Both the position numbers and the translations under genes were made by a program. The notes under the pieces are model-generated. The model saw only the letters and a list, made by a program, of their open reading frames with translations. It did no database searches and was not told the DNA's origin. Shown here one piece after another: positions 4,341-31,218 of a DNA stretch of 64,000 nt. The DNA lies in assembly GCF_003018235.1 (NCBI RefSeq), contig NZ_CP027437.1; one strand, 5' to 3'. Numbering within the stretch: the first letter of the stretch is position 1; the number at the start of each line of letters is the position of its first letter. This DNA is from Escherichia coli. Lineage in GTDB: Bacteria > Pseudomonadota > Gammaproteobacteria > Enterobacterales > Enterobacteriaceae.

Positions 4341-4748
4341 TCACCCCGCCCGATGATGACAGCAGCCGGAGAGATTTTCGATAATCGGGCAGTCGGCGCT
4401 GTCATCACCAGGGCAGGCATTCGCCAGCGCCAGTAGCTGGTCGCGCATGGATTGCAGCTCCTCAATGTGCCGTTCGATCTCCGCTACCTTCTCCAGCGTG
4501 CGCCGTTTTACATCGGCGCTGTGACGCTGTGGGTCGTTAAACAGATTCACCAGTTCGCCGCTCTCTTCCAGGTTAAAGCCCACCTGGCGCGCCTGGCGCA
4601 GTAAGGTCAGTTCGTTGAGATGCTGCTGCGTGTAGGTTCGATAACCATTTTCGCTGCGCATCGGCGGCGTCACCAGCCCCTTCTCTTCATAGAAGCGAAT
4701 GGCTTTGCTGGTCAGGCCGGTAATTTTTGCTACATCGCTAATGTTCAT
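4341..4748 (-). CDS. cueR: CueR, MerR-family copper-responsive transcriptional regulator (135 aa)
   Basis: [25 protein letters not shown]... MerR HTH; C-terminal metal-binding loop with [10 protein letters not shown]; 135 aa as in K-12. Confidence 0.95.
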
Positions 4749-5920
4749 CGTTCGCGCAACGCCTCCTGTGCTTTATTAAAGGGTTTCAACAGATAATCCA
4801 GCACGCTTTTTTTGCCGGTGCGGATATCGACCGTCGCCACCATGCCGGGAAATATCGGAAACTGCTGTTTATGTTTATTTTCCAGATGGTTGCTGAAAGT
4901 GCGAATGTACACCCGATAGTAATAAACATCGCGCCGCACTTCATCCTGCACGGTGTCTGGTGATATCACCGCCACTTCTCCCGGCAGGCCGCCGTAGCTG
5001 GAGTAATCGTAGGCGGTTATTTTCACCAGCGATTTTTGCCCCGGATGGATAAACGCCACATCGCGCGGGGAGATTTTTGCCTCGATCAGCAGTTGCTCAT
5101 CCAGCGGCACGATGGTCATCAGTTTACCACCGGGGGCAATAACGCCGCCAACCGTGGTGACGTCAATGTCCTGAACAATGCCACGTACCGGCGCGGTAAA
5201 GTTGAGCCGGGTGAGAGAATCTTCCCGCCCGCGGATCACCGAACGCTGGGTTTCTACTTCCGCATTGGCTTTCGCTAACTCTTCGCGCGCCTGAACGTAA
5301 TATTGCGTGCGCACGTCGCTGAGTTTGTTTTCCAGTTCATTGGCCTGGCGTTGCAGGCGCAGCACTTCGACGCTGCTCGCCGCCCCCTGTTTGACCAGCG
5401 GCTGGGTCATCGCCAGTTCGCGGTTGACCAGGCTAATCCCCTGCGTCAGCCCGGTGGTGGCTTTGTTCAGCCCATCGCGGCGAGTGTTGTACAACGCCGT
5501 TTCCGACTCGATAAGTTCGGGGAATTTATTCAGTTCGTCAGGGAAGACCAGCGGTTTATTGCTCACTTCCGCCCGCAGCCGCGCTGAAGTCGCCAGCGCC
5601 GCGTACAGGCGTGACATCGCTTCCTGAACGTCGGATTCCGTTTTGGTGCGATTAAGCTGCGCCAGCGGCTGGCCCTGTTCAACAATATCGCCAACTTTCA
5701 CGTTCAGATGATACAAAATCCCGCCTTCCAACGACTGTACCACCTGCTCGCGCCCGGAAGGTTCTACCGTGCCGCTGCCGGTGGTGACTTCATCAAGCTG
5801 GAAGTACCACGCCCAGCCAAGAAAACAGAGCAGCATCACAGCGGTAACGCGTACCGCCAGCGCCGAACGCGGCAGGCGGGGTTCGGTCAGGCCACGATTG
5901 TATTGCAGTTGTCCGTTCAT
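4745..5920 (-). CDS. Type I secretion periplasmic adaptor (HlyD/membrane-fusion-protein family, 391 aa)
   Basis: N-terminal TM helix, long coiled-coil region, C-terminal beta domain typical of HlyD-family MFPs; start overlaps the ABC gene by 4 bp and stop overlaps the cueR start. Confidence 0.85.
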
Positions 5921-29753: not shown

Positions 29754-29861
29754 AATGGCATTCCTGATAAATGGCGCACATCCTTAGCGAGTCCATTTAT
29801 CTAAATAAGACAAAGGTAATCACTTAACAACGAGGCATACCTGATATTAATAATGGCAGGA

Positions 29862-31218
29862 TTATTTCAAGTCGGGTAAGTCGTTGTATAAGCCCTGTTT
29901 AATTCCCGCTAATGGAATAAGGTTATTCACCGCAGCGGCATAATTTACGGCGGCGACCCAGCCATCATAATTGGCATTTATTTCAGCCGATTGCGCCTGA
30001 AAGACATCTTGCTCGACGGTTAATAGATCATTCAGACTGCGTTTGCCCAATTTATATTCATTTTGGTACACATCTCGCGTTTTGTGCGCACTTTCGGATT
30101 GTGCTAAACCGGCTTCTTCGCGACCCCGTGCGCCTGTCCAGTTGGCATATGCCACAGACGCTCGTTGCAGCACATCCAGTTTTGCCTGTTCGACCTGCGA
30201 GGCAGAGATTTTTTGTTGCCCTTCAGCCTGTTGCACCTGGGCTGAAACTGCGCCGCCCTGATACAGCGGCGCGTTAACGTTCAGTTGTAGCTGATCATCC
30301 CAATACGAGCGGTCGCTGGTCTGGTAGCGCGTTTTGCCCCCCTGAATACTCAGCGTTGGCCAGTATTGCGCTTTCGTTTTTTTCCACGCCGTACTGGGCA
30401 GACTGGCGTAAGTTTTCTGCCGCCAGCACCAGCGGGATGGACTGGTAATCAATATTTTTCAGCGATACCGACTGCTCGGCTAATTCAGCAGGTGGCGCGG
30501 CTATCGCCTCCGGCTGTACGCCAGTGAGCACCGCCAGTTGCGCTTTGGCGCTTGCCATCTGCGCCTGATATTGCTCCAGCGTTGAGCGCATTCCGGCAAT
30601 GCGCGTCTGGGCCTGTAATTCATCCGACGATGAGTTCAGGCCAGCGTTAGCGCGCAATGCCGCCATGTTGTAGACGTTTTCCAGCGAGTGAATATTGCGT
30701 TGAGCCGCATCGCACAAAGCCTGATAACGACTGACTTCCATATAGGCAGTCGCCGTTTTCTCTGCAACATCGGTTAAGGTTGCCATCAATTTAAAGCGGT
30801 AGCTGTCACGGGCGGCAGTTTGCAGATTGATATCGTTGTTAGTTTTACCAAAGTCATACACCAGCTGTGTCAGGGTTATGCCATACGAAACGTTGTTATC
30901 AAGCCTGCCGCTGGAGTCCGTTTGTCGGGACGGCCCCGCGTTGCCGGTTAATCCAACGTGCGGATACCAGGCACTTTTGGCTTCATCAATTTGCGCTTCG
31001 CCAATACCTATCTGCGCCGCCTGTTGAGTGACGTCGGGATTTCGCGCAAAGGCGCGTAATATACTTTCCTGTAAAGATAATTGGGCAACTGGCGTTACCG
31101 CTGGGGCATTCGCCCATTGTGGCAGCGGTGCAGCAATTGCAGCTTCTCCCATCACCATAAAACTTATAAAAAAAATAAGTCCATTATTTTTACGGTTTTT
31201 AAACTGGAATCGCGCCAT
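29862..31218 (-). pseudogene. TolC-family outer-membrane channel of the T1SS, split by a frameshift in a C6/G6 homopolymer (ORFs 30295..31218 and 29862..30452)
   Basis: N-terminal ORF has a signal peptide and the first TolC repeat; the C-terminal ORF continues the family in another frame; removing one G from the run at 30335-30340 fuses them into about 452 aa. Confidence 0.7.

Follow-up and report, generated by a model that had tools for sequence, protein, structure and literature searches.

The genes of O-island 28 (OI-28) of Escherichia coli O157:H7 (Z0608, Z0609, Z0615, Z0634 and Z0635, in the range Z0608-Z0635 / ECs_0540-0544) were named tolC28, rtxA28, rtxB28, hlyB28 and hlyD28 in a functional study (PMC12758282; Gut Microbes, December 2025). 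In that study, adherence and mouse colonisation dropped upon deletion of OI-28, of its type I secretion system (T1SS) genes or of its adhesin genes, Ca2+ raised the expression of the island, and RstA activated the locus and bound a box, TAATTCAAATTACC, that lies upstream of tolC28 at -294 to -280. The same locus, which is the siiEA locus of RefSeq, was found in a 64,000-nucleotide stretch of an E. coli genome (RefSeq assembly GCF_003018235.1, contig NZ_CP027437.1), hereafter the window. It has been on record since the O157:H7 genome of 2001, and was already known, named and experimentally studied. An initial annotation of the window had suggested that the locus may be uncharacterised; this was not sustained, given its identity with OI-28, a dedicated NCBIfam model and the functional study PMC12758282, and with a curated gene name (siiEA) and a study dating from 2025 the locus offers little discovery value. 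The best explanation, to which a probability of about 0.9 was assigned, is that the four-gene OI-28/siiEA operon forms a dedicated T1SS together with its single giant substrate.

The locus in the window shared with OI-28 its site between ybaT and cueR, its gene order and the RstA box at -294, as well as an N-terminal adhesin module with 98.5% amino acid identity over the first 200 residues. The two copies differed in their lesions. The "two RTX proteins" (repeats-in-toxin, RTX) of O157:H7 represent a single siiEA gene, one its N-terminal and the other its C-terminal part: in strain Sakai, ECs_0541 and ECs_0542 (rtxA28 and rtxB28 in PMC12758282) made up one 20,469-nt frame, interrupted at codon 1462 by a single stop. 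The adhesin gene of the window was 21,671 nt long, with a frameshift near codon 325, and a further frameshift affected the TolC-like gene.

Other described systems shared parts of this organisation. LapA of P. fluorescens (LapEBC, LapG/LapD) resembled SiiEA by its N-terminal retention module with a [T/A/P]AA[G/V] motif and a Gly-rich linker, its long repeat stalk, its C-terminal RTX block and T1SS signal, and its LssB/LapB-class ATP-binding cassette (ABC) transporter, while the extender and tip families and the gene order differed, and the sequence similarity was confined to shared domain types. The plug model of the retention module and the definition of the motif come from bioRxiv 10.1101/198937. 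The MpIBP/MpAFP adhesin of Marinomonas primoryensis (PDB 4P99, 5IRB) displayed homologous extender units (E = 1.4e-46) and the same RTX-adhesin layout, but the predicted tip of SiiEA is an FG-GAP propeller and not an ice-, sugar- or peptide-binding module. The BapA_N prefix-like N-terminus was common to SiiEA and Salmonella BapA (BapA/BapBCD), also a giant T1SS adhesin by function. The likeness to Salmonella SiiE, encoded in Salmonella pathogenicity island 4 (SPI-4), was limited to the distal immunoglobulin (Ig)-like units, which resembled SiiE BIg50-52 (PDB 2YN3); the N-terminus of SiiEA was BapA-type and not SiiE-type, and NCBIfam classes the protein, despite its name, as BapA-related. SPI-4 also differs by its proton-channel accessory genes SiiA/SiiB, which had no equivalent at this locus (no extra genes between ybaT and cueR).

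Beyond these, orthologous operons with the adhesin, ABC and HlyD genes in the same order were found in Enterobacter, Cedecea, Lelliottia, Pluralibacter, Trabulsiella, Rosenbergiella, Erwinia and Rahnella, with identities of 42-57% for the adhesin C-terminus in most (outliers exist), 66-74% for ABC and 67-72% for HlyD. None of these operons was adjacent to cueR or ybaT, and we found no characterisation of them. A relative in S. enterica subsp. arizonae was more distant (HlyD 55%, ABC 48% identity) and had its TolC gene between the adhesin and ABC genes.

Layout and secretion genes of the locus

Four co-oriented minus-strand genes were found between ybaT and cueR in the operon order tolC-like, adhesin, ABC, HlyD, which bore out the gene order, coordinates and position given in the initial annotation. 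The first, a TolC-family outer-membrane channel gene homologous to tolC28 (Z0608), spanned 29862-31218 and was split in two open reading frames (ORFs). It was followed by the giant adhesin gene siiEA (8083-29753; 21,671 nt), also in two ORFs as sequenced, then by two intact genes coding for an LssB/LapB-type T1SS ABC permease/ATPase (5917-8079; homologue of hlyB28 / Z0634) and a HlyD-family periplasmic adaptor (4745-5920; homologue of hlyD28 / Z0635). The core gene cueR (4341-4748, minus strand) lay directly downstream of the operon and overlapped its last gene. The T1SS gene set, previously described as complete, was complete in content and not in intactness, two of the four genes being frameshifted in the window.

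Family assignments above curated cut-offs supported each secretion component. The HlyD gene product matched TIGR01843 with 330.3 bits (cut-off 208.65), and the ABC protein matched TIGR03375 with 836.8 bits (cut-off 693.1) over residues 10-701, which placed it in the LssB/LapB class; its score against the HlyB model TIGR01846 (389 bits) stayed under the cut-off of 726. Both Pfam ABC_membrane and ABC_tran matched the ABC protein. The two halves of the TolC-like protein matched TIGR01844 at profile positions 2-248 (230.6 bits) and 241-412 (177.5 bits). Together with the adhesin models described below, these assignments confirmed the earlier view of a T1SS with a giant adhesin of the LapA/BapA/SiiE class.

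The island was collinear over its whole length with the siiEA locus of E. coli PCN033 (95.5% DNA identity), where RefSeq labels a TolC family protein, siiEA, a T1SS permease/ATPase and a HlyD adaptor between ybaT and cueR. The same arrangement was found in CE10, NRZ14408, 042 and O157:H7 Sakai (ECs_0540-0545). The highest DNA identity of the island to any complete E. coli genome was about 97-98%; in a scan with one genome per species, the nearest non-E. coli representatives were Escherichia sp. E1V33 (95.6%) and E. whittamii (about 91%), against about 97% for E. coli itself. All four genes were under strong purifying selection, with ratios of nonsynonymous to synonymous substitution rates (dN/dS) of 0.02-0.08 against the intact NRZ14408 allele (hlyD 0.019, ABC 0.036, tolC 0.077, adhesin ends 0.057-0.071).

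The upstream regulatory region of the operon (31219-31527, minus strand) was AT-rich with promoter-like sites. An exact match to the RstA box TAATTCAAATTACC was located at 31499-31512 on the minus strand, which is -294 to -281 counted from the start codon of the TolC-like gene; the box occurred once in the window, at the position published for OI-28. A terminator-like hairpin of ybaT lay at 31522-31544.

Architecture of the adhesin and the toxin alternative

With one base restored in siiEA (see below), Pfam, NCBIfam and hidden Markov model (HMM) searches recovered the module order that had been proposed from sequence inspection, from an N-terminal retention module through Ig-like, divergent Ig-like, FG-GAP and RTX regions to a T1SS signal. 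The retention module (29274-29753, minus strand; amino acids 1 to about 160) matched Pfam BapA_N PF22783 (E = 2.9e-19). The NCBIfam exception model NF047714, "BapA-related adhesin SiiEA", matched residues 1-230 over its full profile with 508.9 bits (cut-off 425), and NF033677 matched the N-terminus with 70.1 bits (cut-off 35). A TAAG motif at amino acids 97-100 fitted the LapG-site consensus [T/A/P]AA[G/V] and was followed by a Gly-rich hydrophobic linker (about amino acids 135-155). The motif was kept in all six intact alleles compared, and read TEAG in the degraded remnant of strain SCPM-O-B-8794.

Ig-like extender accounted for about 87% of the protein. Iterated HMM searches delineated 63 Ig-like units over amino acids 187-6488, of which 56 were regular and seven divergent; the initial annotation had estimated on the order of fifty to sixty tandem domains and five divergent ones. 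The regular units, about 100 amino acids each and of a Ca2+-stabilised type (12505-29195, minus strand; amino acids 187-5750), scored 691-1012 bits per 1,200 amino acids against NF033510 Ca_tandemer; the Ig_like_ice model matched as well, and comparison with PDB 4P99, the Ca2+-rigidified tandemer of MpAFP region II, gave E = 1.4e-46. The array was organised in a six-unit super-repeat (about 600 amino acids, 1.8 kb), as displayed by a mean unit identity of 66% (up to 92%) at lags of 6 and 12 versus 44-47% at other lags. Tandem Repeats Finder returned one short array only over the 21.7-kb gene; it was near-blind to the units because these were only about 72-75% identical in DNA, and the iterated protein HMM was needed. 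The seven divergent units (10291-12486, minus strand; amino acids 5757-6488) reached 28-57 bits with the HMM, matched Pfam Big_13 and resembled PDB 2YN3 (E = 6.8e-8).

The FG-GAP region followed (8926-10248, minus strand; about amino acids 6503-6943), where Pfam FG-GAP_3 matched three times, with E-values between 3e-9 and 3e-7. An AlphaFold2 model from 31 homologous C-termini was all-beta, with a mean predicted local distance difference test score (pLDDT) of 69 and values of 70-90 over this region, and the top PDB matches of the FG-GAP model were CRTAC1 (E = 7e-16) and integrin alpha headpieces. The region is thereby predicted to be a Ca2+-binding beta-propeller and is presumed to form the ligand-binding tip; its integrin/CRTAC1-like fold marks where a host ligand should be sought.

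The C-terminal part contained a short and degenerate block of RTX nonapeptides (8392-8793, minus strand; about amino acids 6988-7121) with a Pfam HemolysinCabind hit at E = 2.1e-4, one further weak hit, weak matches to the CyaA RTX and one strict GGxGxDxUx motif. The RTX repeats of the initial annotation were thus present, yet minimal. The T1SS target domain at the very end (8095-8403, minus strand; roughly the final 100 amino acids) matched TIGR03661 with 38.3 bits (cut-off 17.6), and the C-terminus was almost invariant across the 31 homologues.

An RTX-like block next to a T1SS signal is also what an RTX toxin or exoprotein, released to act on host cells and not anchored as an adhesin, would display, and both the O157:H7 annotation ("RTX family exoprotein") and the wording of PMC12758282 ("RTX toxins") lean that way. 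Against such a toxin stood the BapA-type N-terminal retention module, the adherence phenotype published in PMC12758282 and, above all, three features on which the toxin reading was rejected: the locus, with its four genes only, held no ORF for a HlyC/CyaC-type acyltransferase, the transporter belonged to the LssB/LapB adhesin class and fell short of the HlyB model, and the bulk of the protein was an Ig-like stalk. A released toxin was accordingly regarded as highly improbable, and a secreted giant adhesin was retained.

For this adhesin, a chain of events can be proposed by homology with LapA, MpIBP and BapA, together with the findings of PMC12758282. RstA would activate transcription by way of the box at -294, from a start upstream of the tolC-like gene. 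The ABC transporter and the HlyD adaptor would recognise the uncleaved C-terminal signal, and the unfolded chain of about 720 kDa would leave C-terminus first through the TolC-like channel. Outside the cell, Ca2+ would fold the RTX roll, the FG-GAP tip and the roughly 63 Ig-like extenders into a rigid stalk. The BapA-type retention module would fold in the periplasm or cytoplasm and plug the channel, with the Gly-rich linker staying threaded through TolC. This would keep the adhesin attached and hold its propeller tip out at a distance from the cell. We infer that in E. coli the retention module would anchor SiiEA to the surface and that the propeller would bind a ligand.

Several points weighed against the proposed T1SS-adhesin pair. 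Two of its four genes were frameshifted as sequenced, and the system may therefore not be functional in this strain. The C39-like domain announced for the ABC transporter was barely detectable (Pfam Peptidase_C39, E = 0.018, residues 12-98), even if the transporter itself was firmly assigned by TIGR03375. The RTX block was short and degenerate, with its single strict nonapeptide and a Pfam E-value of 2e-4, and the confidence of the AlphaFold2 model was moderate on average. Finally, no LapG or LapD gene was noted in the 64-kb window, in which the other ORFs were judged by order and length and not by family search, and regulated release in the manner of Lap is unsupported for that reason.

E. 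coli is not known to encode LapG or LapD. By order and length, the remaining ORFs in the window resembled the core set of K-12, and synteny with K-12 was confirmed for 1-39058. A conserved TAAG motif and linker, combined with a LapB-class transporter and no known LapG/LapD, could mean that release is controlled by an unrecognised periplasmic protease or by none; cueR expression might likewise be coupled to the RstA- and Ca2+-responsive operon in carriers and rewired in K-12-type strains. This combined view was considered unlikely.

Two frameshifts in the analysed copy

In the TolC-like gene, ORFs were delimited at 30295-31218 and 29862-30452. Alignment to the intact gene traced the split to an A7 homopolymer with one extra A (30377-30383, minus strand). 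PCN033, CE10, NRZ14408 and Sakai had A6 at the corresponding site. E. whittamii and SCPM-O-B-8794, a divergent strain labelled as E. coli, read AGAAAA there; removal of one A from the tract of the window gave a 451-codon ORF. Among the 958 island-carrying complete genomes, the best match to the 271-bp stretch around the A-run did not exceed 98.9%, and none of the complete E. coli genomes was found to have the A7 frameshift.

A one-unit homopolymer change inside the first gene of the operon brings to mind a slipped-strand switch, by which the A7 tract would turn the secretion system on and off through phase variation. The tract was short for this (6-7 A), however, and was A6 or the interrupted AGAAAA in all six other Escherichia loci compared. 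With no variant among the 958 genomes either, and with the second frameshift of the operon outside any repeat, phase variation appeared very hard to credit.

That second frameshift split siiEA into ORFs at 28728-29753 (341 aa) and 8083-28761 (6,892 aa). It was a deletion of one nucleotide at 28779/28780 (minus strand), at about codon 325, where the window read GTAGG-GCT and the comparison allele GTAGGCGCT; the deletion turned GTAGGCGCT into GTAGGGCT (GGCGC to GGGC). One more base was present at this site in all five other Escherichia alleles compared, and neither of the two indels occurred in any comparison genome. Restoring one base gave a single frame of 7,223 codons coding for a protein of 718.6 kDa with a pI of 4.05 and one Cys. 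The initial annotation had described a substrate of about 7,220 codons, which holds after repair, the gene consisting of two ORFs as sequenced. The frame of 6,892 codons ran without a stop, whereas the other frames of the region offered at most 347 aa, and such an open frame is far beyond chance.

Because purifying selection was strong and 6,892 codons were free of stops, the two indels must be either very recent mutations or base-calling errors. In the first case, both frameshifts would be real and the locus a recently decayed pseudogene cluster, lacking a TolC-like channel and a full-length retained adhesin and heading to a loss like that of K-12. Two independent frameshifts private to the window fit such a decay, as do the degraded remnant of SCPM-O-B-8794, the deletion in K-12, and the state of siiEA elsewhere: among ten other inspected E. 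coli genomes, the gene was intact in six and disrupted in four (PCN033, CE10, 042 and Sakai). The ABC and HlyD genes were intact, however, one of the indels sat in a homopolymer, a typical site of base-calling errors, and the stop-free remainder with its low dN/dS (0.02-0.08) implied that any inactivation was very recent. The probability of decay was put somewhat short of even.

In the second case, the frameshifts would be errors of sequencing or assembly, and the OI-28 system of the strain would be intact and functional, its adhesin being 7,223 aa long. One restored base per gene indeed sufficed to give full-length ORFs with no further defect, the TolC indel was a change from A6 to A7, neither indel was shared by another genome, and the strong purifying selection points in the same direction. 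The siiEA indel (GGCGC to GGGC) nevertheless lay outside long homopolymers, and genuine disruptions of siiEA were common in other finished genomes. Sequencing error was given a chance of just under one half. Under either explanation, the operon is still best read as a T1SS with its giant adhesin, while functional claims on this particular copy need both frameshifts to be verified first: if they are real, the strain lacks a dedicated outer-membrane channel and is left with a large C-terminal adhesin fragment without retention module.

Deletion in K-12, distribution and surroundings of the island

The island had been described as inserted between cueR and ybaT, and K-12 as holding only a short spacer at this position. 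The latter was confirmed, the spacer being 124 bp long and the island genes not present in K-12, but the former was not supported by the content of this spacer. On the ybaT side, homology to K-12 ended at 31528, within the terminator-like hairpin of ybaT (boundary 31527/31528); on the cueR side, BLAST of K-12 506000-518000 against the window showed that it resumed at 4840, 92 bp inside the HlyD gene (boundary 4840/4841). Relative to K-12, the island thus corresponded to 4841-31527 (26,687 bp). The last 92 bp of the HlyD gene (4749-4840, minus strand) survived in the K-12 spacer, as obtained by BLAST and alignment; the spacer aligned with the last 92-100 bp or so of the gene, coding for the conserved C-terminus of the family, and its translation displayed a frame broken by a 1-nt deletion. 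Since the K-12 spacer keeps a decayed 3' end of HlyD, K-12 carries a deletion scar, and its state reflects deletion of the island.

Occurrence of the locus in related lineages was in line with this direction of change. At the same site next to cueR, E. whittamii had the full gene set and Escherichia sp. E1V33 the HlyD-cueR junction, and SCPM-O-B-8794, in which the TolC-like gene, the N-terminus of the adhesin, ABC and HlyD are left only as fragments, is an intermediate stage of decay. These observations agree with an island that is old in Escherichia and was lost by deletion in K-12-type genomes, that is, ancestral and repeatedly lost, not recently inserted.

Insertion of a classical integrative element was rejected: no tRNA gene was found in the window from 1 to 36 kb, and no integrase- or transposase-sized ORF among the annotated island genes in other genomes, nor any flanking insertion sequence element. 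GC content was 0.58-0.63 across 5-29 kb versus 0.44-0.56 in the flanks; the composition was atypical (58-63% for the island against about 50% for the flanks), and the elevated GC of the transporter genes is a pointer to an earlier arrival from a foreign source.

The stop codon of HlyD overlapped the start of cueR (ATGA, 4745-4748), and the K-12 relic retained these bases together with an upstream AGGAGG; it follows that cueR in K-12 has its ribosome-binding region from the 3' end of the lost secretion gene. In island carriers, cueR may be co-transcribed with the operon. A consensus scan of the minus strand within the HlyD 3' end found no internal cueR promoter, a scan that was uninformative either way.

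The island was present in 957-959 of 5,426 complete E. coli genomes (about one in six), always as a single chromosomal copy. PMC12758282 reported OI-28 as absent from enteroaggregative (EAEC; 0/10) and extraintestinal pathogenic (ExPEC; 0/55) E. coli; contrary to this, EAEC 042 carried the locus, with siiEA disrupted, as did CE10, isolated from neonatal meningitis, and NRZ14408, isolated from a wound swab. The length of siiEA varied between strains, from 17,006 nt in CE10 and 18,975 nt in 266917_2 to about 20,775 nt in several strains and 21,683 nt in PCN033, compared with 21,671 nt in the window, and the differences were multiples of about 100 amino acids. In E. whittamii, the adhesin gene was much shorter and missed most of the Ig array, possibly by collapse of a short-read assembly.

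Sequence divergence was also uneven along the gene. The 5' portion of siiEA (about 2.8 kb; 27000-29753) displayed a synonymous divergence (dS) of 0.57 over codons 1-270 and 617 mismatches in 2,824 columns against NRZ14408, while dS was 0.09-0.20 in the remainder of the island; PCN033 matched the same 5' portion at about 98% identity, a pattern suggestive of distinct alleles that recombine in the N-proximal region of siiEA.

The chromosome in the window was oriented in reverse of K-12, with the island flanked by qmcA (cut; 14-577) and ybbJ (574-1032) on one side and by ybaT (31556-32848), then glsA and copA, on the other. A second segment that is not in K-12 (1028-4340; 3.3 kb) lay between ybbJ and cueR, where K-12 has 0-6 bp. 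It contained a YadA-like trimeric autotransporter gene (1827-3629, plus strand; 600 aa), a putative lipoprotein gene (3715-4137, plus strand) and small ORFs; SCPM-O-B-8794 had no such YadA segment. A 369-bp tandem duplication (2129-2428 and 2498-2797, 97% identical) made the YadA-like gene longer than its counterparts of 338 aa (Sakai, CE10, NRZ14408) and 431 aa (PCN033). On the other side of the island, the ybaP-copA interval (36544-36905) measured 362 bp versus 730 bp in K-12, with ybaQ absent or replaced, as in PCN033.

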